Positions 6,655 to 55,877 of a DNA stretch of 64,000 nucleotides are shown one piece after another. This stretch comes from an uncultured Alphaproteobacteria bacterium (GTDB lineage Bacteria; Pseudomonadota; Alphaproteobacteria; JAJTHO01; G963706365). Made by a program: the position numbers and the translations under genes. Position 1 is the stretch's first letter. Every line of letters starts with the position of its first letter. The notes beneath the pieces were generated by a model. The model saw only the letters and a list, made by a program, of their open reading frames with translations. It had not been told where the DNA came from and searched no databases. Location: NCBI GenBank assembly GCA_963706365.1, contig OY970150.1, positions 1,596,265 to 1,660,264 on the forward strand. Reading direction: 5' to 3'.

Positions 6655-6700
6655 TAAGAACCAGTCAACTTAGAGCTTACCCCAAAACCCACGTAAGTTC
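6655..6700. repeat. Degenerate repeat copy: family B half-site (aagaaccagtcaact) followed by a family A left-arm-type sequence (agagcttaccccaaaacccacgtaagttc)
   Basis: It matches the left arm of the composite element near 53438-53470 (agagcttacaccaaaatccacgcgcaagttgaa). It lies between the purL start and the stop of the VirB6-like gene. Confidence 0.5.
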
Positions 6701-8139
6701 TAAGCCTTAGATTTACCCGCCCCTGAACTTTTTAAAGCGGATGTTAAGCGTTGGTTATACTGTTTTCTATTAGAAAAGTTTTTCGCTAAGGCGTTGCCCG
6801 CTGCTCCGCCTGTTAAACCATAAGCCGTGCTGGCGATAGTGCCGAACATTTTACTACCCAGCTCAGGAATTTTCAAAGTGTTTGACATGGATAGTGCGCG
6901 ACTGGTTAAGGCCGGTACACCGTCGACCATCGCCTTGCCGAACAGCCCAATTGTTAGCATATAAATTAGTAATTTACTGGCTAAACCTTTGGTAACAATT
7001 TCCTTGCTTTCGTAAACGTTTGCCACGCTGCCATAATCACTGTCGTTAATAACAAACACGATTAAAGCAAAAATGATAGAGACAGCGGCTGCCAAAATAA
7101 CCAGGGTGAAAGCAGAGTGAAAAAGCACTTTTAAGCCAGCGGTGGCAATATTACGGCTGACGGGGAACAGGAAGGCCACCAGCATTACGGGCGCTAAAAT
7201 TGTAATAATCGTCCATTTAAAAACCACATCAATAATGCGAAACGGTATAGCGATCATGATAGAGCCAAAAAAGTACATCATGGCCAAGGATACGGGTAAT
7301 AGAATAGGTCGCTTGGCTTCTTGGGAGCTTTGTTTTTTAAACTGATCCCACGAGTTTTGACTGGCATTACCCTGGCCACCATTATTTTTACCGGTAAATA
7401 AATCAATGCCCATTTTAAGGCCTATGCCAAGAGTTTTGGCGGTCATTTCAACGGTACATTCCAGCTGCGCTATTGCCAGGCTTTCATCAATAGGGTCAGT
7501 ATTGCCAGGATCAGACTGTTTTAATTCTCCGCTGGCTGTTATAAATTGTTCACCACAGGTAATGTCTGCTAGGTCAGGGTCATCTACTAAAGAAGCTGCC
7601 GCTGTCACCATTAATTGTGCTACTCCGGTGCCAGCAGTGGCCACAGATTCATGGATTTTCCATACAATATCCGGGCTGCGGATTAGCAATGCGACAATCA
7701 TTGCCAGTAAAATACGCATCACTATATCATTTAAAACTTTACTGCTGTTGCCCTCCATCGGCCCAAAGGCTGTTAATAGTTTACCGACCTGAAAAAGTAG
7801 CCAGATTACAAGGAAAACAGCCATAAACTCCATTAAATCTTTTTGAAGAATAGCAGATATTGTACGTGCTGATTTTCTGCTTTCCATCGCAATTTCTACC
7901 AAAGATTTCATCCAGGCGCCTTGCACCCAATCTTCTTTTTGTTCAATAACGTAGGCTGTTGCTTTGCGAGCAGGATCTTCTTCTTGCCCAACTATATTTG
8001 CCGGGGCATCCTCTTCCAGCCGGTTAAGAATTCGTTCTCTTTCCAGAAAAATCAGTTCGCCTTCGGCATTACGAGAAACATTATTTTGTGCATGGGCGGT
8101 GCTGAAACAGAATAAAATTAAAAGAAAAAGGATGCGCAT
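6700..8139 (-). CDS. VirB6/TrbL-like polytopic inner-membrane protein (short paralog) with a signal peptide
   Basis: It has a signal peptide (MRILFLLILFCFSTAHAQ) and several TM helices. The block RIIDVVFKWTIITILAPVMLVAF is paralogous to IDALIKWTVISILTPVLAG in the upstream 1365-aa gene. Its start is coupled to the upstream stop (TAATG). Confidence 0.5.
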   Translation of the reverse strand: MRILFLLILFCFSTAHAQNNVSRNAEGELIFLERERILNRLEEDAPANIVGQEEDPARKATAYVIEQKEDWVQGAWMKSLVEIAMESRKSARTISAILQKDLMEFMAVFLVIWLLFQVGKLLTAFGPMEGNSSKVLNDIVMRILLAMIVALLIRSPDIVWKIHESVATAGTGVAQLMVTAAASLVDDPDLADITCGEQFITASGELKQSDPGNTDPIDESLAIAQLECTVEMTAKTLGIGLKMGIDLFTGKNNGGQGNASQNSWDQFKKQSSQEAKRPILLPVSLAMMYFFGSIMIAIPFRIIDVVFKWTIITILAPVMLVAFLFPVSRNIATAGLKVLFHSAFTLVILAAAVSIIFALIVFVINDSDYGSVANVYESKEIVTKGLASKLLIYMLTIGLFGKAMVDGVPALTSRALSMSNTLKIPELGSKMFGTIASTAYGLTGGAAGNALAKNFSNRKQYNQRLTSALKSSGAGKSKA

Positions 8140-11100
8140 TAGCTATCTGATCCTCGGCTAGTGCTGCCTGCCATGGCCGGTTGTTTCGTGCCGGCTGTGG
8201 CGGTTGGTTTGCCAGCGGCAATTCTGTCAGATAAACTTTTGGCCAGGTTAGAATCAGATTTAGTATTGTCTAAGATATCTGTTTTGGCGCGGCGGCTGAA
8301 TGGTACAATATCATTGCGGGCATCTTGCATGTCATCAAAAATAGAACCTCTTTTGACTAAATTACCGGCATCTGCATCGGTGTTTTGTGGTTTCGGGCGT
8401 TCTGCTGTGATGCTGTCCAAGGCCATTTCGCGCTTTTCTGCTTCGCTATAGGCATTAAAGCTGTTGCGGTCTGCTGCGGTGGCGGTGGTTTTTTCCCATT
8501 CCTGTTTTTTAAATACATCGCCTGCGGCATGTCTTGCCCGGTTAGCATGAGCAGCTATATTATCAATTCTTGTGTTGGTGCCGCTGGTGGCTTGTAGGGA
8601 ATCTTTATAGTTATCAGAGACACTTTTCATTTGTGCTTTAATGGCTTGTTTATTGCTGCCAGCAACGCTGCTCATCCCGGCAATGCTTGCCACACCGGCA
8701 GCGGCCAATAAACCAGCGTTAATAGACTGTGTCTGACGATCTTCGCCCACAACATTCATATATTTTTCAACCGCTCTATCCATCTCGGCTTTATATTCTT
8801 TAACACTGCGTATCTCGCTTACATTGGCACTGGCCATGGCTTCAATACGGTCTTTCATGTAATCGTGTCTGCCTGTTGTGTCCTGTGTGCCAGCAACGGT
8901 TGTCGCCATTTTCATACTCGTGGCCTGAATTAAGGCAATATGCGCATTTTTCTCTAGTTCACGTTTTTCTTTACCACTCACAGCACCGCTTTGCAGATGG
9001 TCATTAAATTTATTTAAGCGGTCAATCAATTGATCTACATTTTGGTCATCATCGGCCAGTTGTGCAAGACGGTCTACTTGCTCTTTTTGTGTGGTGGCGG
9101 TGGGTTGGCCTGCGCGTCGCTGGGCATCAGCCATCAAGTTTAAACTTGCGTTCACGGCCTGGCGGCCAACACTTTTTCCTTTTAGAGCCTCGGTGAAATT
9201 ATCCATACCAATTTCACTGCCTAAACCGGCTCCTTCTAGAATATTGTTAGCTACATTCAGGCTTATTAAACCTGTTAATTTGGCGCCTCCCCAAGCAACC
9301 TTACCAGGTGTCACAGACGCAGCAACACTGCCAGGTATTCTTGACAGGCCTTTACCCATGGCACCAAAATATTCTTTGGTGCTGCCTACTTTATCAGCGG
9401 CAAAGGATCCCACCATAATGGCCGCCCCTAACGAAGTATTGATTGCAAATTCAACCACATTAAAGTTCTCAGCGGCATCAAACATATCATTAATCGCCTG
9501 TTTTGCTTCTTCAATTTGTTCCTGCACACGTTCTTGTAGATTGCTGATTTCTTCTTGTTTCTCTTCTTCTGTTACTTCGTTTTGTTGCAGTTCTTGTTCT
9601 TGCAATGCAATGTTTTGCTCGGTCATCTCGTCGATTTGACGATCTGCTTGTTTTAGTTCCTTAGAGGATATTTCGTCTAAAAGCTCATCATTAATTTCAC
9701 CGGCTTCTGCTATGGCTTCGGCATGTTCTGCATCAATTTCATTACCAGCCTGAACGGCATTAATGTTACCACCTGCCAAGGCTGCAACTGTTCCCATGCC
9801 CATACCTGCCATGGCTAGTGTCATAGTTTCTAATAATTCAGCTGCTTCTTCAGGATTTTCTTGCATGGCACGTGCTTGTTCTGCGGTAATACCCATTCCA
9901 GAAAGCTCGAAATCTTGCATAAAGCCATAGCCTTCTTCATAGCGGGGGCCATAACCGGCCGCCGTATCCTCCGTTCGGGGAATAGGTGCCGTAGTGTTGC
10001 CATAAGTTGCATTTTTATCGATGCCTAAGGCATTCGCCATTCCTTCCGGTAGCATAGACTGTGCAAATGGCGTTGCCACCCCGGCAACTGCGCCGCCGCC
10101 CTGTTTTAAGCCACTACCCAATAGCCCCGCCATAGAACCAAAAATCGCCATACCAATACCGCCCAAGGCAGGAGAGCCTAGAATAGTAGAGGTCATCGGG
10201 GCAATGTTTTTCATGGAATGTTTAGAAATTAAACCTGTTGCAAACAACAACCACCAGTCAACATTAGCCATAGAAACAGGCGGTGTTTTTTCTGGGGAGC
10301 CTGCACCGGCAACGCCAACCGCGCCTTCGGCTTGGTTGTAGACGATATCTGTCGGGTTTATTAGGCCGCCATTTAACCGAATCTCAAGGTGCATATGGGG
10401 GCCTGTTCCTATGCCGGTATTCCCAATTAAACCGACAACCGCACCGGCCCCTACTGTTTGACCGGCCGATGATAGTATTTTACTAAGGTGACAATACTTT
10501 GTTTCATACCCATCCTGATGGTCAATTTTAACCATATTACCACATCCACCCCCTACATTTTCAGCTACAAGAATCACTCCGGGTTTCATTGATAATTGTT
10601 TAGCACCAGCATCACAGCCTATATCAATACCGCCGTGGCGTCTGGTGCAATAAGAACGACACGCGCCCCATTTCTGTCCGCCATGCGTTCCGGGGGTACA
10701 CATTGTTTTATAATCATTCGCATCAATAGGAAATGTCCAGCCTGACCCCATAGGAAGTTCGTTTATAAGAGTTCCTGATTCACTACCATCAGCTTGTAAT
10801 AGTGTATCATAATATTCTAGCGTCTCTTTACGGGCATGCGTATATTCATCGACAGCGCCGCTGGCCGCGTAATCCTCGTAAATAGGTAATGCTGCAACAG
10901 GCTCATTCGGGTTAGAAATAGCCGGATCAACGCCATCTTCCACACCGTCTTCCGGTGTTCCATTCTCAGCGGCTTCGGCAGCTTCCGCATTTTCAATTTG
11001 TTCTTTAACGACCTCGGGAAAGGCATTAAACGCACCGGCCAGGGCAGATTCTGCGGTAGTTAAACGAATAACCGCATAGTGCACCATATGGCTTAGCAAT

Positions 11101-12236
11101 ACGGCAATGATGGCGGCAATAATAAAATTTAGGGCGGATTCCAGCACAACCTTGTAACCCAAAACAGCAAATTTTCGGGTAGAAGGGAAACAGGCACAAC
11201 CGGCTAGCACCGGTGTTAAAATACTAATAACTGTCCATTTAATCAGGGCATCAATCACCATCACTGAAAATAACAGGATAGGCAGAATAAACATGATGAT
11301 TAGTAACCCACCGGAAAATTTCCCGTCCCAGCTTCCATAACTACTAAACGTATGTATACCAACAGCCAGCCCATAGGAAAAGGCGCGTTGCAAGGTATGG
11401 ATCTGGCATTCCAGTTTATCCTTCATCAGGTGTTTTTCATTGGGTTCGCCATTAACGGTACTCATGCCCTCTAGGGCGGTTAAGTTAGTTGCATAACAAC
11501 CACGATCCCCTTTGTCCGGGTCAGAGCCCTGGTATCGTGCTTTATAAAGAAGAGAATCCTTTGGGCTGCCTTCTGTAATTATATCATAACCAAAATCAAT
11601 CCCACCACTTACCACCGGTTTATAGACATATTCCCAGTAAATATTATAACCACTGGCTGTAAAAGTGCCGACAACAAACAGAACCAGCATAACACGCACG
11701 AAAATGCTATTGCCGATATTGGCAATGCCGTTACTCGCGCCAAACGGCATCAAAATTTTAATAACCTGCCACATTATCCATAAGGCGAGTATGATGGCCA
11801 ATAGCTGCATAAATTTATCGCCGGCTTTATCCATCATTTCCGGTGGGTAAAGCATGGCCGCGGTAAAAATATGCGCGGCTATGGGGCAGACAAAACAGAA
11901 TTTCGACAAATTACCCTGAATTTCGCCAACAGATTTTTTGGCACCAGGGTCAGCAGCAACCATTTTGGTGCCATCATCACTTTGTGGAGTGCCTGCCCCT
12001 CCGTCTTGTGTTGTACTATCAGCAGGATCTAGCGTAGGGTCTTCCTCTGATGGTGTTTGACTTCCTCTTGTCTCGTTTCCCAGATTACTACCGTCCTGGC
12101 CAGGGTTGGCCGCATCATTATTGGCCTCAACATTATCCTGAGCATAAGCATCGCCAGAAAAACAGAGCATCAAGCAGCAAAAAATAACGAATAAAATGTG
12201 TCTAATCCGATACCTTTCCTGCTCTAAGTGATTCAT
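8139..12236 (-). CDS. Large VirB6/TrbL-like membrane protein with an embedded M23 (LytM-type) metallopeptidase domain and a long Gly-rich and coiled-coil C-terminal extension
   Basis: It is 1365 aa. A signal peptide and an acidic region precede the TM segments. A TrbL-like core spans about aa 110-390. The M23 motifs are HGGID (H-x3-D) and GNTGIGTGPHMHLEI (HxH), at about aa 495-630. Coiled-coil and Gly-zipper segments follow, running from about aa 640 to the C-terminus. Confidence 0.55.
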   Translation of the reverse strand: MNHLEQERYRIRHILFVIFCCLMLCFSGDAYAQDNVEANNDAANPGQDGSNLGNETRGSQTPSEEDPTLDPADSTTQDGGAGTPQSDDGTKMVAADPGAKKSVGEIQGNLSKFCFVCPIAAHIFTAAMLYPPEMMDKAGDKFMQLLAIILALWIMWQVIKILMPFGASNGIANIGNSIFVRVMLVLFVVGTFTASGYNIYWEYVYKPVVSGGIDFGYDIITEGSPKDSLLYKARYQGSDPDKGDRGCYATNLTALEGMSTVNGEPNEKHLMKDKLECQIHTLQRAFSYGLAVGIHTFSSYGSWDGKFSGGLLIIMFILPILLFSVMVIDALIKWTVISILTPVLAGCACFPSTRKFAVLGYKVVLESALNFIIAAIIAVLLSHMVHYAVIRLTTAESALAGAFNAFPEVVKEQIENAEAAEAAENGTPEDGVEDGVDPAISNPNEPVAALPIYEDYAASGAVDEYTHARKETLEYYDTLLQADGSESGTLINELPMGSGWTFPIDANDYKTMCTPGTHGGQKWGACRSYCTRRHGGIDIGCDAGAKQLSMKPGVILVAENVGGGCGNMVKIDHQDGYETKYCHLSKILSSAGQTVGAGAVVGLIGNTGIGTGPHMHLEIRLNGGLINPTDIVYNQAEGAVGVAGAGSPEKTPPVSMANVDWWLLFATGLISKHSMKNIAPMTSTILGSPALGGIGMAIFGSMAGLLGSGLKQGGGAVAGVATPFAQSMLPEGMANALGIDKNATYGNTTAPIPRTEDTAAGYGPRYEEGYGFMQDFELSGMGITAEQARAMQENPEEAAELLETMTLAMAGMGMGTVAALAGGNINAVQAGNEIDAEHAEAIAEAGEINDELLDEISSKELKQADRQIDEMTEQNIALQEQELQQNEVTEEEKQEEISNLQERVQEQIEEAKQAINDMFDAAENFNVVEFAINTSLGAAIMVGSFAADKVGSTKEYFGAMGKGLSRIPGSVAASVTPGKVAWGGAKLTGLISLNVANNILEGAGLGSEIGMDNFTEALKGKSVGRQAVNASLNLMADAQRRAGQPTATTQKEQVDRLAQLADDDQNVDQLIDRLNKFNDHLQSGAVSGKEKRELEKNAHIALIQATSMKMATTVAGTQDTTGRHDYMKDRIEAMASANVSEIRSVKEYKAEMDRAVEKYMNVVGEDRQTQSINAGLLAAAGVASIAGMSSVAGSNKQAIKAQMKSVSDNYKDSLQATSGTNTRIDNIAAHANRARHAAGDVFKKQEWEKTTATAADRNSFNAYSEAEKREMALDSITAERPKPQNTDADAGNLVKRGSIFDDMQDARNDIVPFSRRAKTDILDNTKSDSNLAKSLSDRIAAGKPTATAGTKQPAMAGSTSRGSDS
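10347..10754 (-). other. M23 peptidase catalytic domain within the 1365-aa VirB6-like protein
   Basis: The sequence TRRHGGIDIGCDAG ... YCHLS ... GNTGIGTGPHMHLEIRLNGG is the canonical LytM/lysostaphin-type zinc-binding motif set. Confidence 0.8.
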
Positions 12237-18126: not shown

Positions 18127-18546
18127 CTACAGTTTCATAACACTGTTGCTCCATTCTTCTTTAAGTGCTTCTTGTTGTTTATCGACAATCACTAAGCGGC
18201 GTTGAATAATTTTGCGTTGAATAGCTTTTACAACCACCGGAACAGTGAAAACCACTAGCCAGCCAATACCGGCATAGCCATAAATAATTAGCCATGTTAA
18301 GCTGTCGGAAACCACCTTCATACCGGCATCCATATCTTGCCCTATGGGAATGAGATCCATCATATAAGGTACAATGCCGGCCATATTAAAAAAAGCGACA
18401 GTTTTAGGAATACTTCCGTTGCTGCGCGTGTCGCTAAATTTGGCGGCCAATGTTGGCACCAGGCCAATGAACAGCAAAATGGCCGCGGGTATAGACGCCA
18501 CGGCAATCATGATAACTAGTAGTAGAATCAGTATATTACTTTTCAT
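18127..18546 (-). CDS. Small hypothetical inner-membrane protein, translationally coupled to the upstream kinase-like gene by a 4-nt overlap
   Basis: It is 139 aa with 3-4 predicted TM helices. It has no recognisable domain. Confidence 0.4.
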   Translation of the reverse strand: MKSNILILLLVIMIAVASIPAAILLFIGLVPTLAAKFSDTRSNGSIPKTVAFFNMAGIVPYMMDLIPIGQDMDAGMKVVSDSLTWLIIYGYAGIGWLVVFTVPVVVKAIQRKIIQRRLVIVDKQQEALKEEWSNSVMKL

Positions 18547-20558
18547 CTTAAAGCGATTAGCCCTAAAGTTAGTAGCCCTGCCAACCCGCCAGAAACATAT
18601 GGTGCGTATTGGTCAGAAATTCTTCTAGATATAATCGGAAGTTGCTCCATTTCTCCTAATAGCTGTTCTTTCTTTTTTTCAAGGTTTTGGTAAACATTTT
18701 GTGCACGGCCAAATTCTTCGGAATCTTTCGCCAGCTCAATTGGCTGATCAACAATATTATGAATTTGGATTAAGCTGGCTTTCTTTTTTAATTTATCTAG
18801 TTGGTTGCGCACCAAGTTTTGTCTGGTTTTACTGTGATACAAGCCAATCATGGGGGCAGAAACTTTTAACAGCCATTTACATAGATAAGGGTAGTCCGCC
18901 TTGTTACTATAGGCATTTTCAAGCATACCCAATATTTGTACATTAGCCAAAGCAACTTTAGCCTTATTTTCATGCGCGGTTAAATTATAAAGCGTAACAT
19001 CTTTTATTTTATTGGTGTGGCTAACAAGAAAAGCGGCGATATGGCGGTCTATAGGCCAAAGTTTATGGTTGCTTTCTACTTTGGCAATTTCTTCTAAAGC
19101 ATCTAAAAGCTCTGCGGGGTTTCTTACCAGGTATTTTTCAAAGAGGGGGCTTTGGCACGGCAAGGTTTTATTAAGCTCATATAGGCAACGTTCAAAACCC
19201 ATGCCATAAGCTGTTTTATTGGCTATCAAGGATAGTTTTTCATATATTTTTTGAAGTATGATAAAGTTACTCAGATTATTGGAAGATCGACGCACCAGAT
19301 GAATGCGAAATTCCATAAAATGGCTTAGAATCAAATCAAATGGAATCATACGGCTAACAGCATCATGCTGATGCGCGGCCAATGCATCACAGATACCGTC
19401 TGTTGCGATAACCTTTTTTTGATAATAGATAGGCATATGATGGTCTATGCCACTTAATGCAAAAGTCGTTGTAACGTTTTGTTGAATGGAGGTGGGGGAT
19501 CTTTTAGAACGGTTTATACCATCCCTTAAATCGGTGTAGGCCGTTTTTTGATTGTTACTACGTACCAACCAGTTTTCCATATCTTTACTGGCTAGAATAC
19601 TTAGGGTATCTTTATTGTTATCCGTTACATTGGTACCAATGGCATTCACTAATTGGGCAACGCTAACATGATCCTTTTTTTGATAGAAAAAAGGACGCGT
19701 GGCTCTTCGGGCCGCCTGATTGTGGCGTAACGGCACTTTTTGCCCGGCTGCCCAGTCATCAACATCATTCAGTGTCCAGCGCTGTCGAGTATCGTCATTT
19801 AAGGTGCCTTTTAGTAATTCTGTTAAACGTTCAGAAAGGCGATATTCTCCTAAGAAAGCAGACAAGCTATTGCTTATAAGTCTTTGTTCTTGTAATATCT
19901 CCAGATTTTTTACCTGGCTAAAATCTTTACCAATGGCCATAGAAAGAACGACCATTCCCAGGCTAAAAATATCATGGCTTACTGTACCAGCGCCTCTGGC
20001 TTCGGAATCACATAAGCTGCTTTCCACCGGTTCATAAGGCTTTGGTTGTTTATAGCCGGGCGGCAACATGTAACACTCACCAAAGGTCAGATGATTTTGG
20101 AAAAAATACAGGTTATCGGGTCTTAAGCTGCGATAACTGATGCCTTTAGAATCAAAATCTCTAAGCAGGCGGACAAAGGGCTTAATAATCAATTCTGTAA
20201 TAGATTCTTCCCGATACTTAACGCCCCGCCCATCTTTTGTTAAGGGCAGCGGCACGCCTTTTGGTTTGACAGTAATAACCAAAATTCGATAGCGTTTTTC
20301 GCCCGGTAATAAAACCGGGAAATACTTTAATGGTCGCATAAGCATTTGCATATTACTGTGCGATAATTTTTCTAAAACAGTGTGGCGCGGCGGTAAAGTA
20401 GGGTGGCTGATTAAGCCAAGATATTCAGTAGTTTCTGTTTTAACAATGTGCGCCTGTATTAAATCAGTGCTGAATTTTTCCAGCGGTTTACCCAGCTGGA
20501 CGCTGTAAATTTTATCCAGCTGCGTAACAGCATTTTCTTTTAAGGCGATGGCGCGCAT
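18543..20558 (-). CDS. Hypothetical protein with a degenerate protein-kinase-like N-terminal region (pseudokinase-like) and a C-terminal membrane anchor
   Basis: ISYRSLRPDNLYFF resembles the HRDLKPxN catalytic loop, but the catalytic Asp is replaced by Ser. TFGECY resembles DFG. SHDIFSLGMVVLSMAIG resembles kinase subdomain IX (DxWSxG). The C-terminus is hydrophobic (GGLAGLLTLGLIAL). The N-lobe is shorter than in canonical eukaryotic protein kinases. Confidence 0.3.
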   Translation of the reverse strand: MRAIALKENAVTQLDKIYSVQLGKPLEKFSTDLIQAHIVKTETTEYLGLISHPTLPPRHTVLEKLSHSNMQMLMRPLKYFPVLLPGEKRYRILVITVKPKGVPLPLTKDGRGVKYREESITELIIKPFVRLLRDFDSKGISYRSLRPDNLYFFQNHLTFGECYMLPPGYKQPKPYEPVESSLCDSEARGAGTVSHDIFSLGMVVLSMAIGKDFSQVKNLEILQEQRLISNSLSAFLGEYRLSERLTELLKGTLNDDTRQRWTLNDVDDWAAGQKVPLRHNQAARRATRPFFYQKKDHVSVAQLVNAIGTNVTDNNKDTLSILASKDMENWLVRSNNQKTAYTDLRDGINRSKRSPTSIQQNVTTTFALSGIDHHMPIYYQKKVIATDGICDALAAHQHDAVSRMIPFDLILSHFMEFRIHLVRRSSNNLSNFIILQKIYEKLSLIANKTAYGMGFERCLYELNKTLPCQSPLFEKYLVRNPAELLDALEEIAKVESNHKLWPIDRHIAAFLVSHTNKIKDVTLYNLTAHENKAKVALANVQILGMLENAYSNKADYPYLCKWLLKVSAPMIGLYHSKTRQNLVRNQLDKLKKKASLIQIHNIVDQPIELAKDSEEFGRAQNVYQNLEKKKEQLLGEMEQLPIISRRISDQYAPYVSGGLAGLLTLGLIALR

Positions 20559-20620: not shown

Positions 20621-21397
20621 TTGGGTAAACTATATGTACGCAGGATGTGTTGGAGTGGTGAAGCGTCTACAGTATTGGCAGCCGTTGGTTTGGGAACAAC
20701 CGCATGGGCTGCTTATAAAAAAGAGCATCCTGCATTATGGATAACGCTGGGCTACTTCTCCTTGATGGAGGCGTTACAGGCCTATACCTATGGTGTCATT
20801 GGCCAATGTAATGACCCAGGTAACCAGATTGCCACCTTATTAGGGTATCTCCATATAACCTTCCAGCCGTTTTTTATTAATATATTATCGCTCTATTTTT
20901 TACCAAAAGCGGTGCAGCAAAAGCTCTATATTCCTGTTTATACTATCTGTTTTATTGCGGCGATTGTTATGATTATTCAGGTCTACCCGTTTAGCTGGAC
21001 AGGGCCTTGTGACCCGATAAGGCCATTGTGTGCCGAAAGGCTTTGCTCTGTTGAAGGCAACTGGCATATTGCCTGGGAAGTGCCGTCTAATGATCTAGGA
21101 AACTACTTCGCAAGGCTCGATTTTCTGCCGCTTCAAGGTATGAAAAGCGGCTTTAACGCCTATATCTTTGCGGGTCTTATTTTGCCTCTGCTCTATGGTT
21201 CTTGGCGGATGACGCTGTATCACTACGCCATGGGGCCGTTTTTAGCTTCCCTTACAACCGATAATATTAATGAATGGCCAGCTGTGTGGTGCCTGTTATC
21301 TATTGGCTTTTTGTTAATCGTGGTCAAAACACCGTTAAGAAGATGGTTGCGTGTAGAAAAATGGTGGTTATGGCCAAAATCCTGGACGGCTGCTTAG
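20621..21397 (+). CDS. Hypothetical polytopic membrane protein
   Basis: It is 258 aa with several TM helices and no recognisable motif. Confidence 0.4.
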   Translation: MGKLYVRRMCWSGEASTVLAAVGLGTTAWAAYKKEHPALWITLGYFSLMEALQAYTYGVIGQCNDPGNQIATLLGYLHITFQPFFINILSLYFLPKAVQQKLYIPVYTICFIAAIVMIIQVYPFSWTGPCDPIRPLCAERLCSVEGNWHIAWEVPSNDLGNYFARLDFLPLQGMKSGFNAYIFAGLILPLLYGSWRMTLYHYAMGPFLASLTTDNINEWPAVWCLLSIGFLLIVVKTPLRRWLRVEKWWLWPKSWTAA

Positions 21398-26275: not shown

Positions 26276-29200
26276 ATGAAAATCAATGCTATTTATGAAG
26301 TTCCAAAGAACGGAATTACAGTAAAAAACGGTGCTGATGGAACATCCTATTATAGATCAACAGAGGGGGATGATTTACAAAGTACTGATAACTGGGCAAT
26401 TAAAGATACAACTGGTCTATTTAGCGCTGTTCCAGAAGTTGTTAGTTTTCATTTTCAACTTAGTGATTTACATAGTTATGATGAGTTTTCAGCAAATGCA
26501 ACTAAAGACTACTTTGTTGTTTATGCCGATAAAACAATAAAAGTTGATAAAGCTAATGCTCCTGAAAATGCAGGTTACAAAAACTCCCATTATAGAACTG
26601 CGTATTACATTAGCAAGAAAGAGGCTGAGAAGTATGAAATTAAAACACCAGACGAATTTTTAGAATATTGCAACAGATTTACGGGCACTGCCCATAATCA
26701 AGGTATGTATGACATTAACCCTGATGAGCAAAATTTGGCTCAAGGATATGTTGCCACTTTTGCTAAAACTGCATCTGGAAAACTAAAAGATTGGCCAAAA
26801 GAAAAGCCAGCGGCTGAACGAGAGGCTTTTGAAGAAGAGGTTGTTTTAGAGTCAGATATAGAATCCTTAAAAAATACATCTACACAAGATCTCCGCCGCA
26901 GAATTTTATTTGATGCTGAGCAGTCTGAAAAAGATGAAATAGCTGTGGTTTTGGTTGATAGGGCGCTAAATATTATTAAAGACAGAGGCTTAGAAGATTA
27001 TACATTTTTAAACCGCGGTGATGAAATTGCAAATATTCACTCTGCCCTCGCAAACGCTTATAAAGCTGATTTGCAAGGGAGCAGAAGAGCCGATATTGGT
27101 TTTAAAAGTAGCACTGATAGATTTGTTGAGGATTTACAATATATTTTACATGCGGTGAATGACTTAACTAAGTCTTCGTTTCAAGATAGAATTGCCGAAA
27201 TATCATCTACTTCTAATGAGGTTGGTAGTCCGGAATCAGAAGTTGAACCTATGTCCACGGAAAGGATATCTGAGCCTGATGATGTAACTCACACTATAGA
27301 TCTTGAAGCTGACACATCGACAAAAACAGTCAAAAAAAATATAATTTCTCGCGTCTGGGATAGCACTGTAGGGAAAATTTTAATTGGTTTAGGGCTTGTT
27401 TCAGGGGCAACGTCAATTGGCTACAAAGCGATAGATTCAGCTATGAAATCTACACCAACAGCTCCTGCGCAAAGCGAGCCAAATATAGAACAGCCTTACG
27501 AGCAACCAGTCGCTGAATCAGTTCCTACAACGCCAGAGGAAATCGTTGAAGAATATAGTCTTAATGAATTCAATGCTTTGACAAGGGAGTCTGAACTCAT
27601 TCCTGATGGAAATACCTTTGTCTACCAAGATGGCGAATTAGTTGCTGAAATTAGCAATAGTGACTATGATAAGCTATCAGGTCTTTATACCCAACGAGAA
27701 CTGTCTTTATCTAACACTGATACTCAACCGTACTCTGAGCCATTTATTGAAAGTTCAGAAAGTACAGTGAATTTTGAAAAATTACAAGATACCATACCCT
27801 CAGAAATTGAAACAATTGCACCAGATGTAGCCGATGCTCAGGAACTAGAAATTGCTGATATTAAGAAAATGCAACAAGGTTTGCAAAAGGCGGCAAACCG
27901 TCTTGAAGAAGCCCGGCAAGCTTCTAATGTTGGTGGTTTCAGGTTTGAAGGATTGCAAGAGTTTTCTGGAATAGAAAATATGAATTCTGCTGAATTGCAG
28001 CAAGTTTTAGAGAGTGGTGCAGAACTTCATTCAGCGTTCAGCAGCGAGCAAGGGGCAAAAGATTTCCTTTACCATGTTGCAAGCCAAAGTGATGGTCAGC
28101 TAACATCTGATGAAATTGATTATATCCAAGGCTTGAAAGGTGAAGTGCAGCATATTACAGCCGCTGTTGAGCATGCACAAAAATCAGTAGACGAAAGCAC
28201 CGCTGCTTTTGCTGATGCTGCTGAGACTTTAAATAAAAGTGGTTTTGAAGATGTCAAAGCAGACGACCTTGTCGCAATAATGGATAGTCACGCCAATTCC
28301 AATGCAGGCGGACAGGGGATAGACCTGATGCACAACATACAGCAAGAGTTAACTTCCAATCTATCGGCTTATGAACAACAACAATTAAGCTCTCTTGCAC
28401 CTAATTCCGTTTCAAATGATTCATTTGCGCATGCTTCTGCTGATGGCAGCATACATGGTTTTACGCAAAATAATTACCAAGCGCCATTAGCTGGCCAAAG
28501 ATTGGCATGGCAGTTGGAGACGAAAATGGCGCAGGCGGGAGAAGCTTTGCAAACTGCGGGTGAAAAATTGGGTAATTTGTGGGAAAATACCGCTGGTCAA
28601 TTGTCGAGCGAGCAATGGGCAGTTGTTGGTAAAGTTGGCGGATTCGCTGCATCTGCTGCTTTTACAGCAGCCTCAATGCGCCGCTTGTCACAACAAGAGG
28701 AAACAACCAGAACCCAGCGTGTTAACTTTGCGGGCAGCATGGCACGTACAACGCTGATGGGTGTGGGTTTTGCAAACCCCATGGCTATGGCTGCTGCTGG
28801 TGTTGTGGGTGGTGCAACAAAGGTTTGGTCACTTGCACAGGAAGAAACTCTTCAACAGTTGCAATCTTCAAAAGAAAATTTAACAGCAAAACGTATAGAT
28901 ATCCATGAAACAAAATCTACTGGTGTGCTAAGTGGTTTGCATAATACTTTTGCAAAAACATCCAATAGTGTCAAACTAGGTATGACCAACGCACAATTAA
29001 CTGTTTCACAACCTTTAAATGCATCGCGGCAGGTAACAGAAGCGGTGGCAACTGATGCTGCTAATAAAATTGCAACAGGCGTTGACTCTATTCATAGTAT
29101 GGCTCCACAAGATGGTGCGCTAGCCAATTTTATCGTAAAAAAATCAACAGGCACTTTACAGGCTGTAACCGATTTAGGAAAAGAAACAGGCGGCATGTTC

Positions 29201-54539: not shown

Positions 54540-55877
54540 ATGAACTTACCAAATGTACCTACCAAGCTTTTAGAAAAAATTGCAAAAAAGCGTGATGTTG
54601 TTAAAAGTCCATATTCTGTTGAGGAGCTAATAGCAGCTTGTTCAGATGAGGCATTGGTAGATGATGATGTTAAGGCCTTAATAGATCTACTGAATGCGAA
54701 AAATGCGCAACAGGAATTTGCTTTTTATGAACATGAAAATGTTGTCTATTTTTGTCACTTTGATAAGTCAGGCACATTGTTAAAAGATGATCCTGTCTTT
54801 TATAGAATCGATGATGTGCTGCATGTAAAGACAGAAAATGGTGATTTTGTTGAATATCTTGAGCCGCATATTAGGCGTAAAGATAAAGAACTATTACGAA
54901 AGCTTGATGAAGAACCTAAAACAAAATATCTCTGGTGTGCGCAAAGGGGTAATGTAAAAGGAAAACTTAACTTTAGTTATCAAGGACTTTTGATTTCCTT
55001 TAATAGGGAACAGGAATATGGTGTTTTCAACCATGTTTTCAGTTCATGTAACGGCCATAACCGCCATTATATGTTTGAAACAGGCCATGACCAGCCACCT
55101 AATAGTGAATTTAGCTTGCAAGAAAAAATAAGTTATAGTATGCAGGCGCTTTGGTTTAGTAGGGTTGGTGATAAAGCGCGTATTAAAAATATGGGGCGCT
55201 CCGTTGGTGCACTTGATGAGGCTATGGGAATACCGGTTAGTGAAACACAAGCCGCTTTTTATCATGCTGATTTATGCTACGATAAGATGTACACAGACGT
55301 TGGTTTACGTTACATGATTAAACCAGGAAATCCCCACATAGATAACGAGCACTTAGGCAATAAATACCGGCATTGTGGTGTTGATCTATTTAGGGTTTTA
55401 CATTCTTTAGGCCTATTTCCACATGTTAATCCTAGTATAGCAGGGCATCAGCAGGAAATCAGTTTGGCACGAGAGGATACGAACAATAAAAAAATAGATA
55501 GCACAGAAAGAATTAATAACAGGCTAAATATTTTCCGACCAGATACCTTAAAACGGATTCAAGATTGGTGCTTAGGTAACCATCAAGCAATTATAGGTAA
55601 ATTTAATACACAATGGGGAGAGGTTAAGCTTTGTGAAACAAAAACACGTGTAGGTATGTCTACCCTTATGCTAGATACCAGTAATCTCAAAGAGATGGAT
55701 GATATCCCACTCATACTTCAAGATTTGAAAAATCGGTATGGATTAAATTTTGAGGGCAATATTTCAGAAGGACAACTCTACAAAATTGAAAATTTAGATT
55801 ATTATCAAGCTGCACGGATGCATGATAAAATAGCTGAATCTTCACCATATAGAAATTACGAACTAGCTAGAAACTAA
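54540..55877 (+). CDS. Hypothetical protein (445 aa), AT-rich orphan and candidate effector
   Basis: The frame is clean and the upstream region is AT-rich. No recognisable domain. Confidence 0.4.
   Translation: MNLPNVPTKLLEKIAKKRDVVKSPYSVEELIAACSDEALVDDDVKALIDLLNAKNAQQEFAFYEHENVVYFCHFDKSGTLLKDDPVFYRIDDVLHVKTENGDFVEYLEPHIRRKDKELLRKLDEEPKTKYLWCAQRGNVKGKLNFSYQGLLISFNREQEYGVFNHVFSSCNGHNRHYMFETGHDQPPNSEFSLQEKISYSMQALWFSRVGDKARIKNMGRSVGALDEAMGIPVSETQAAFYHADLCYDKMYTDVGLRYMIKPGNPHIDNEHLGNKYRHCGVDLFRVLHSLGLFPHVNPSIAGHQQEISLAREDTNNKKIDSTERINNRLNIFRPDTLKRIQDWCLGNHQAIIGKFNTQWGEVKLCETKTRVGMSTLMLDTSNLKEMDDIPLILQDLKNRYGLNFEGNISEGQLYKIENLDYYQAARMHDKIAESSPYRNYELARN

Follow-up and report, generated by a model that had tools for sequence, protein, structure and literature searches.

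The stretch of DNA analysed here, called the window throughout, comprises 64,000 nucleotides of contig OY970150.1 from the assembly of an uncultured alphaproteobacterium (GCA_963706365.1). Two overlapping genes on its minus strand, here named X and Y, encode a tail-anchored protein with a kinase-like domain and a small membrane protein. X belongs to a widespread family of pseudokinases, so far undescribed, in which a novel domain is attached to the kinase-like one and Y serves as the dedicated partner in the membrane. The two genes and their junction, in window positions, are:

18543..20558, minus strand: gene X including its stop codon, encoding a tail-anchored pseudokinase protein of 671 amino acids (aa) (open reading frame (ORF) list; identical to P0001 in public data; 620-790 aa in full-length homologs).
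18127..18546, minus strand: gene Y, encoding a polytopic membrane protein of 139 aa, the conserved partner of X (ORF list; homologs downstream of X).
18543..18546, minus strand: ATGA stop/start overlap of X with Y (direct reading of the DNA).

An earlier note, made from the letters of this DNA, had described two genes of 671 and 139 aa overlapping by 4 nt, and both the coordinates and the literal ATGA were confirmed. Read directly, the end of X (...TTA AGA TGA) and the start of Y (ATG AAA AGT) have these 4 nt in common. Such an overlap implies a putative translational coupling of X and Y.

The N-terminal part of X contains the segments that resemble protein kinases:

19704..20540, minus strand: kinase-like (pseudokinase) domain with both lobes, residues ~7-285 (AlphaFold2 (AF2) model, Foldseek, family profile).
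20406..20423, minus strand: beta3 strand equivalent YLGLIS, residues 46-51, with Ile50 at the position of the VAIK Lys (hidden Markov model alignment to FALK of MK2).
20112..20141, minus strand: catalytic-loop equivalent ISYRSLRPDN, residues 140-149, with HRD changed to YRS, Arg146 at the Lys position and Asn149 kept (HMMER alignment, family columns).
20076..20087, minus strand: DFG equivalent TFG, followed by Glu161 (TFGE) (HMMER alignment).
19929..19979, minus strand: subdomain IX / alphaF segment SHDIFSLGMVVLSMAIG with the invariant Asp196 (HMMER alignment, family columns).

Taken as a single sequence, X scored 22 bits (E 1.2e-4) with the Pfam Pkinase family (PF00069), short of the gathering score of 31.7 and over residues 192-265 only; its single-sequence kinase matches in NCBIfam and the PDB were weak too. 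A homology search with X retrieved 62 full-length relatives of ~680 aa at 24-28% identity, and a family profile built from 30 of them matched 578 chains of solved kinases at E<=1e-3, reaching E 2.6e-14 with MK2 and extending from beta3 through subdomain XI. The segments ISYRSLRPDN, TFGE and SHDIFSLGMVVLSMAIG, which the earlier note had likened to kinase subdomains VIb, VII and IX, translate as quoted there and align to those subdomains of PDK1 and MK2 with HMMER. The AF2 model of X, produced from the family alignment, had a mean predicted local distance difference test score (pLDDT) of 88.8 and a predicted template modelling score (pTM) of 0.83. Foldseek, which had been suggested as a way to tell a true kinase fold from a coincidental resemblance, aligned this model over ~283 columns with complete kinase domains, among them those of Aurora A, Mps1, WNK3 and PknB, with a target-normalised template modelling (TM) score of ~0.70 and a probability of 1.00; the resemblance is not due to chance. 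Residues ~7-285 of X are thus predicted with high confidence to form a complete bilobal protein-kinase fold, and the modelled fold and the profile both place X in the protein kinase-like superfamily (Hanks-type fold). A match to the lanthionine synthetase LanL in NCBIfam (E 9e-8, 31 bits against a cutoff of 650 bits) was rejected as an identity for X, as it covers the kinase-like part of LanL only.

The N-lobe had been thought short. In the model it has strands at residues 11-14, 18-21, 34-40, 45-51, 76-82 and 91-96 and the alphaC helix at residues 59-65; the HRD equivalent follows at residue 142, and Foldseek aligned kinase domains in full, so this description could not be upheld. The lobe is complete, but its sequence hallmarks are gone: the Gly-rich loop, the VAIK Lys (now Ile50) and the conserved alphaC Glu.

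Catalytic columns were checked in two sets, one of 85 non-identical members from genome loci and one of 145 sequences, made up of the query and 144 representatives from an exhaustive search. The beta3 Lys column of the family contains Val, Ile, Leu, Ala or Met, and Lys in 0 of 145 sequences. At the HRD Asp column the 85-member set has Ala in 41, Asn in 20, Gly in 8, Ser in 6 and Asp in 3, and the 145-sequence set has Ala in 85, Gly in 21, Ser in 17 and Asn in 10; Ser144 occupies it in the window protein, and the catalytic Asp is indeed substituted, as had been noted. The DFG Asp column (Thr158 in the window protein) is Met, Val, Ala, Ile or Thr in the smaller set and hydrophobic, Gln or Thr in the larger, and never Asp. 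A Gly-rich (GxGxxG) nucleotide loop N-terminal to beta3 is absent from both the query and the family consensus. Judged by these columns, the canonical phosphotransfer residues have been lost family-wide, with the beta3 Lys, HRD Asp, DFG Asp and Gly-rich loop all missing. A kinase fold lacking its catalytic residues is what canonically defines a pseudokinase, and the assignment of X to that class stands. A review of bacterial pseudokinases describes proteins degraded in all three motifs as nearly always lacking ATP binding (PMC12599244).

Other kinase positions have been kept. In the 85-member set the remaining catalytic-loop columns are conserved as His (81/85), Arg (74/85), Arg146 (77/85) and Asn149 (80/85), the DFG Gly160 is invariant (85/85) and the next position, 161, is Glu in 46 and Asp in 31. 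Asp196 is found in 85/85 and 145/145 sequences, and Arg260 in 84/85. Comparison across homologs gave a split answer, with the VAIK Lys and the Asp residues of HRD and DFG absent and the structural His, Arg, Asn and Gly retained. The retention of the structural kinase residues (the His142 equivalent, Arg143, Asn149, Gly160, Asp196 and Arg260) shows that purifying selection acts on the fold, the chemistry of which has been lost. Three members from Arenibaculum and Skermanella (loci L029, L053 and L061), which form one subclade, have kept or regained an Asp at the HRD position, in the motif HGD[IV][RQ]P.N; their beta3 Lys and DFG Asp are still missing.

The remainder of X consists of a second domain, which the earlier note had passed over, and a terminal helix. 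This separate, more strongly conserved part of unknown fold makes up about 60% of the protein. Its features are:

18744..19703, minus strand: conserved domain, residues 286-605, alpha-helical with two beta-hairpins (separate AF2 model).
19149..19205, minus strand: GMGFERCLYELNKTLPCQS, residues 452-470, the most conserved motif of the family, consensus GxGxERCLYELNPxLPCQS (family columns).
19041..19049, minus strand: invariant DRH motif, residues 504-506, at the N-terminus of a predicted helix (family columns, AF2 model).
18546..18743, minus strand: single long predicted helix, residues 606-671, forming a cytoplasmic stalk and the tail-anchor transmembrane (TM) segment (helix 606-670 by DSSP of the AF2 model).
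18549..18605, minus strand: tail-anchor TM segment, residues ~652-670, followed by a 1-residue tail (hydrophobicity).

In both sequence sets the most conserved residues of X lie in this C-terminal domain of ~320 residues, outside the kinase-like domain. G452, G454, E456, R457, L462 and N463 are present in 85/85 members; Y460, D504 and W330 in 85/85 and 145/145; S470 and P376 in 85/85 and 144/145; and C468 in 83/85 and 144/145. R505 and H506 each occur in 83/85 members, and in 128/145 and 142/145 sequences respectively. Modelled alone with AF2, the domain reached a pLDDT of 91.8. In the model of the whole protein, a predicted helix starts at each of the motifs GxGxER and DRH (residues 455-462 and 505-514).

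Searches for relatives of this domain returned nothing of substance. Foldseek with the domain model found no match in the PDB or BFVD (best E 0.9-1.6, TM score <0.2; best in the PDB E 1.6, TM score 0.18). A trimmed C-terminal profile searched against PDB sequences hit only low-complexity designed armadillo repeats (E 0.013), with no stretch passing on its own; Pfam gave no family common to more than one member and NCBIfam no match. In Ire1 and RNase L, a kinase or pseudokinase is joined to a helical KEN/HEPN nuclease domain with Arg, Asn, His and Tyr residues. An extension of this type was considered and rejected for X: Foldseek returned no such structure, and the sequence lacks the Rx4-6H motif.

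The hydrophobic residues 652-670 with their 1-residue tail bear out the single C-terminal TM helix described before. A C-terminal hydrophobic segment is present in 83 of the 85 family members, with a median tail of 3 residues, and no N-terminal hydrophobic segment or signal peptide was found in X. Based on these sequence features, the predicted topology of X is that of a cytoplasmic protein, tail-anchored on a terminal helix of ~65 residues.

The product of Y accompanies X almost throughout the family. Among the 86 loci fetched, the large ORF is intact in 82, and a Y homolog (phmmer E 6e-7 to 9e-24) lies directly downstream of X in 75, often overlapping it or only a few bases away; the loci without Y are truncated contigs, frameshifts or miscalled starts. 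This association and the ATGA overlap agree with the coupled small polytopic membrane protein of the earlier description. Conserved features of Y are LPT..GMxPT, Asn54, YGxAGxGW, Pro103 and a C-terminal QxxLxEEW[G/S]. Most homologs have a Lys/Arg-rich N-terminal tail, and there is a basic loop after the first hydrophobic pair and a basic C-terminal helix. By the positive-inside rule, Y probably has four membrane-embedded segments with both termini in the cytoplasm. The Y profile gave only scattered chance matches in Pfam and the PDB. One apparent X-Y fusion, an 820-aa ORF in a Magnetospirillum metagenome-assembled genome (MAG; L039:2278-4740), was dismissed as frameshift read-through with a nonsense Arg/Gly/Pro-rich tail.

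An hmmsearch of 1.84 billion cluster representatives (50%-identity clusters) identified 1,338 representatives at E<=1e-30, and the best 150 of the 1,338 were all 620-790 aa long and matched end to end. In a scan of one genome per GTDB species, relatives of X occurred in 434 species, where the best match to the window protein was 31% identical. The taxa among 80 fetched loci include Magnetospirillum, Phaeospirillum, Paramagnetospirillum, Skermanella, Arenibaculum, Nisaea, Thalassobaculum, Oceanibaculum, Elstera, SAR116 and Azospirillaceae; the odd MAG labels of a few relatives (Comamonadaceae, Actinomycetota) are probably binning errors. In the homolog loci (L002-L006 and L007-L086) the pair usually lies in a strongly conserved housekeeping block, in which hisZ and purA precede X and Y, and a convergent rpoH-like sigma factor gene and a pseudouridine synthase gene follow. 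Of 77 loci with enough flanking sequence to judge, 63 have purA immediately upstream of X and in the same orientation, at a distance of ~80-145 nt; the rpoH-like gene is within 1.5 kb downstream of the pair in 52 of 75. The X family is thus one of fixed architecture, vertically conserved in mostly free-living (aquatic and soil) alphaproteobacteria of the Rhodospirillales type. PHROGs gave no match and PADLOC only a weak match of the kinase region to MkoA (E 3.8e-5), which, together with the stable chromosomal synteny, sets X apart from anti-phage defence and phage systems.

It had been suggested that an atypical kinase domain in a probable intracellular symbiont points to host interaction or scaffolding rather than catalysis. 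Of the two roles, scaffolding in place of phosphotransfer is the more reasonable. A symbiont-specific degenerate kinase acting on a host, as a secreted or surface effector or a mimic of host proteins, would accord with the 'eukaryotic-like' kinase fold, with a VirB6/TrbL-like protein encoded in the window and with a small, deep-branching genome (1.87-Mb contig). It is nevertheless very improbable, and the presence of the family in 434 species genomes, chiefly of free-living aquatic and soil alphaproteobacteria, largely refutes it. The pair sits in housekeeping synteny, and the T4SS-like (type IV secretion system-like) genes lie at least 6 kb from X, beyond unrelated genes. Host interaction is also made unlikely by the topology of X, which is predicted to be cytoplasmic and tail-anchored and has no signal peptide. 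Nor can the degeneracy be tied to a symbiont, because it is ancestral to the family, which lacks all three catalytic residues (beta3 Lys, HRD Asp, DFG Asp) throughout.

The reading that we favour, with a probability of roughly 0.55, is that X and Y form a 1:1 complex in the inner membrane, where X, as a pseudokinase, serves as a scaffold or switch without catalysis and has its functional site in the new C-terminal domain. X would be held at the inner membrane by its tail anchor on a long helical stalk and would remain wholly cytoplasmic. Its N-terminal 285 residues, a kinase fold lacking canonical phosphotransfer, would serve as an interaction or conformational-switch module, while the C-terminal domain of ~320 residues would carry the main functional site and bind a ligand or partner. 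Y would be made in a fixed ratio with X through translational coupling and act as its membrane partner, and the pair would be a vertically inherited feature of the housekeeping type in alphaproteobacteria related to Rhodospirillales. The analysis shows the two ORFs and their overlap, the predicted kinase fold, the loss of the catalytic triad throughout the family, the conservation and synteny of the pair and the absence of any known relative of the C-terminal domain; we infer that X and Y form a complex, how Y is arranged in the membrane, that X does not act catalytically and where its functional site lies.

Several points weigh against it. Asn149 (80/85), Arg146 (77/85) and an acidic residue after the DFG Gly (77/85) are kept, and could support non-canonical nucleotide or metal binding. 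The interaction of X with Y is deduced from gene adjacency and coupling, and a genuine X-Y fusion was not found in the fetched loci. The purA/rpoH synteny may reflect inheritance rather than function, and the family is known here from sequences and predicted structures alone.

The first of these points also favours the chief rival explanation, in which X would catalyse a non-canonical reaction, either through a repurposed pocket, as in AMPylation by SelO or glutamylation by SidJ, or through a catalytic C-terminal domain regulated by the pseudokinase. We consider this possible, if on the whole unlikely. The invariant E456, R457, Y460, N463, C468, S470, D504, R505 and H506 are conserved above anything in the kinase domain, in a pattern like that of an active site. 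Moreover, the Gly-x-Gly turn and DRH stand at the N-termini of predicted helices, a geometry common in anion- or phosphate-binding sites that may hint at such a site here. However, X is without the Gly-rich loop, beta3 Lys and alphaC Glu that would hold a nucleotide in its kinase pocket, and its C-terminal domain bears no structural or sequence likeness to known enzymes in the PDB, BFVD and Pfam searches. The invariant polar residues would fit a binding interface equally well.

Among characterised systems, the best functional analogy for X is EssB/YukC, which is likewise membrane-anchored, with a cytoplasmic kinase fold that has lost its catalytic residues and acts as a scaffold (PMC3526858, PMC12599244). 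It is the only membrane pseudokinase scaffold that the current catalogue cites as functionally demonstrated (PMC12599244). EssB differs in being bitopic, with a central TM helix and an extracellular C-terminal domain, and in belonging to a type VII secretion system cluster of Firmicutes, whereas X is tail-anchored, wholly cytoplasmic by prediction, alphaproteobacterial and equipped with a different C-terminal domain of ~320 residues. No secretion genes were seen beside X, where the neighbours are purA, hisZ and rpoH in the homologs or nadE and the DUF5765 gene in the window, and no sequence relationship between X and EssB was detected beyond the generic kinase fold.

The catalogue of bacterial pseudokinases lists seven families: ActPs1-3, GLW, CP1, DYD and DLHK (PMC12599244; O'Boyle et al.). 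In outline GLW comes nearest to X, being mainly proteobacterial as described there, with three degraded motifs, a hydrophobic residue in place of the beta3 Lys and a C-terminal TM segment; such a segment is found in many families and is not diagnostic. GLW proteins, according to the same description, have a GLW motif in place of HRD and a poly-Leu beta3 (LLLL/W) (PMC12599244), in contrast to the X family with H-R-[A/N/G/S]-I-R-P-x-N and a beta3 of [YF]-A-L-[VI]-C (YRS and YLGLIS in the window protein), so X falls outside GLW. The consulted account of GLW describes no large conserved C-terminal domain or partner gene. ActPs3, the MviN(MurJ)-linked pseudokinase of Actinobacteria, resembles X in that it is membrane-associated, degraded in its motifs and thought to regulate through protein-protein contacts; X differs by a full-length activation segment with its own GRGxG motif and by a separate small membrane partner. 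CP1 is reported to be linked to a COG3899 ATPase and to lack a TM segment, DLHK to be linked to a helicase or DNA2, and DYD to carry a DYD motif (PMC12599244); X has a TM segment and none of these domains by Pfam or NCBIfam, and belongs to none of the three. With the canonical Hanks-type Ser/Thr kinases (PF00069; PknB, MK2, Aurora A), X has in common the bilobal fold, the His, Arg and Asn of the catalytic loop, the DFG Gly, the alphaF Asp and the subdomain XI Arg, and is distinguished from them by the missing Gly-rich loop, beta3 Lys, conserved alphaC Glu, HRD Asp and DFG Asp and by a single-sequence score below the Pfam threshold. Set against the published descriptions, the X family fits none of the seven catalogued families. 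Members are annotated in public databases as 'hypothetical protein' or 'eukaryotic-like serine/threonine-protein kinase', and we found no study of the family in the open-access and bioRxiv literature, an absence that is not proof that none exists.

A bolder and rather doubtful extension of these ideas is that the new-fold C-terminal domain would form a ligand or catalytic site from the invariant residues of GxGxER..Y..N..C.S and DRH at the N-termini of two helices, with the dead kinase as its allosteric regulator. X and Y would then make up a signalling device of the inner membrane that defines the Rhodospirillales-type alphaproteobacteria, and their family would in effect be the eighth among bacterial pseudokinases, with a new output module. 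If so, the reason why the pair is nearly always found between purA/hisZ and rpoH might be a connection with nucleotide status or with envelope and heat stress.

The window copy is an atypical representative of its family. Of the 103 positions with a conservation of >=80%, its X protein keeps only 74, the fifth lowest value in a family with a median of 97, and it is 25% identical to other members, compared with 34% among the others. At conserved positions, H142 has become Tyr, and R378, G390 and W418 have been replaced. Window Y has neither the N-terminal tail rich in Lys and Arg (15-50 aa) nor the acidic C-terminal tail of nearly all homologs, and has Ser for the near-invariant Gly of the C-terminal EEWG motif. 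None of the hisZ, purA, rpoH-like and pseudouridine synthase genes of the usual block lies within the 64 kb. These substitutions, the lost tails and the lost purA/rpoH neighbourhood would be expected of a decaying, non-functional remnant bound to become a pseudogene in a reduced genome, which we nonetheless regard as improbable. X and Y are both intact ORFs of full length that still share the ATGA coupling, and the AF2 models of X are of high confidence. All of the top-conserved residues are retained in X (G452, G454, E456, R457, Y460, L462, N463, C468, S470, D504, R505, H506, W330, P376, D196, R260, G160 and N149). Furthermore, the nearest relatives, from freshwater MAGs (L007-L011 and L022), are similarly divergent, which indicates a fast-evolving subclade rather than a single decaying gene. 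The window copy is accordingly seen as intact, fast-evolving and relocated out of the usual neighbourhood.

In the window the pair is surrounded by a divergent gene for a DUF5765 membrane protein, nadE, cvpA, a UPF0093 protein gene, gltX and glycosyltransferase genes. The DUF5765 gene (Pfam E 4e-37; 20621..21397, plus strand) is separated from the pair by an intergenic gap of 62 nt. The same arrangement recurs in L001, the sole other contig with an identical X gene, and the DUF5765 gene is not a neighbour of other X-family members. A scan for promoters and terminators from 17.0 to 21.5 kb gave sites not in excess of shuffled controls, and so left the transcript ends and a possible co-transcription with nadE undecided.

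Elsewhere in the window, PurL is ~65% identical to its best matches, the named ones being Rhodospirillales or Alphaproteobacteria MAGs, and this level of identity marks the source, with its 1.87-Mb contig, as a deep-branching alphaproteobacterium. A 479-aa TrbL/VirB6-like protein (Pfam E 3.5e-10; 6700..8139, minus strand) abuts a 1365-aa protein (8139..12236, minus strand) whose sole recognisable part is a central M23 peptidase domain at residues 533-628. The two look like a type IV secretion-like pair by sequence, and nothing else in the window hints at a host-associated lifestyle; given the VirB6-like gene, a symbiotic source is possible, on suggestive grounds only. Where the GC content of the window is at its lowest (0.366 at 26-28 kb; ~0.43 overall), there is a 1002-aa ORF with no Pfam match (26276..29284, plus strand), which may be a foreign or fast-evolving gene. 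A second low-GC stretch (0.367 at 54-56 kb) holds a 445-aa ORF, also with no Pfam match (54540..55877, plus strand). No tRNA genes (ARAGORN) and no Rfam families at the gathering threshold were found in the whole 64 kb.

Bacterial pseudokinases are a recognised class that is almost unstudied, and X adds to it a large, architecturally uniform family that is near-universal in a major alphaproteobacterial radiation and includes culturable, genetically tractable genera such as Magnetospirillum. The strongest selective constraint falls on an attached domain that has no structural or sequence relative, and the small membrane partner is obligate. X and Y therefore offer a well-defined pair of genes with which to find out what part a dead kinase fold plays at the inner membrane of bacteria. 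As regards the window, the module is inherited housekeeping and not an adaptation to symbiosis, which corrects the earlier interpretation and urges caution against reading 'eukaryotic-like' domains in small genomes as effectors. The window copy is only one divergent member of a family that provides a testable lead for bacterial signalling.

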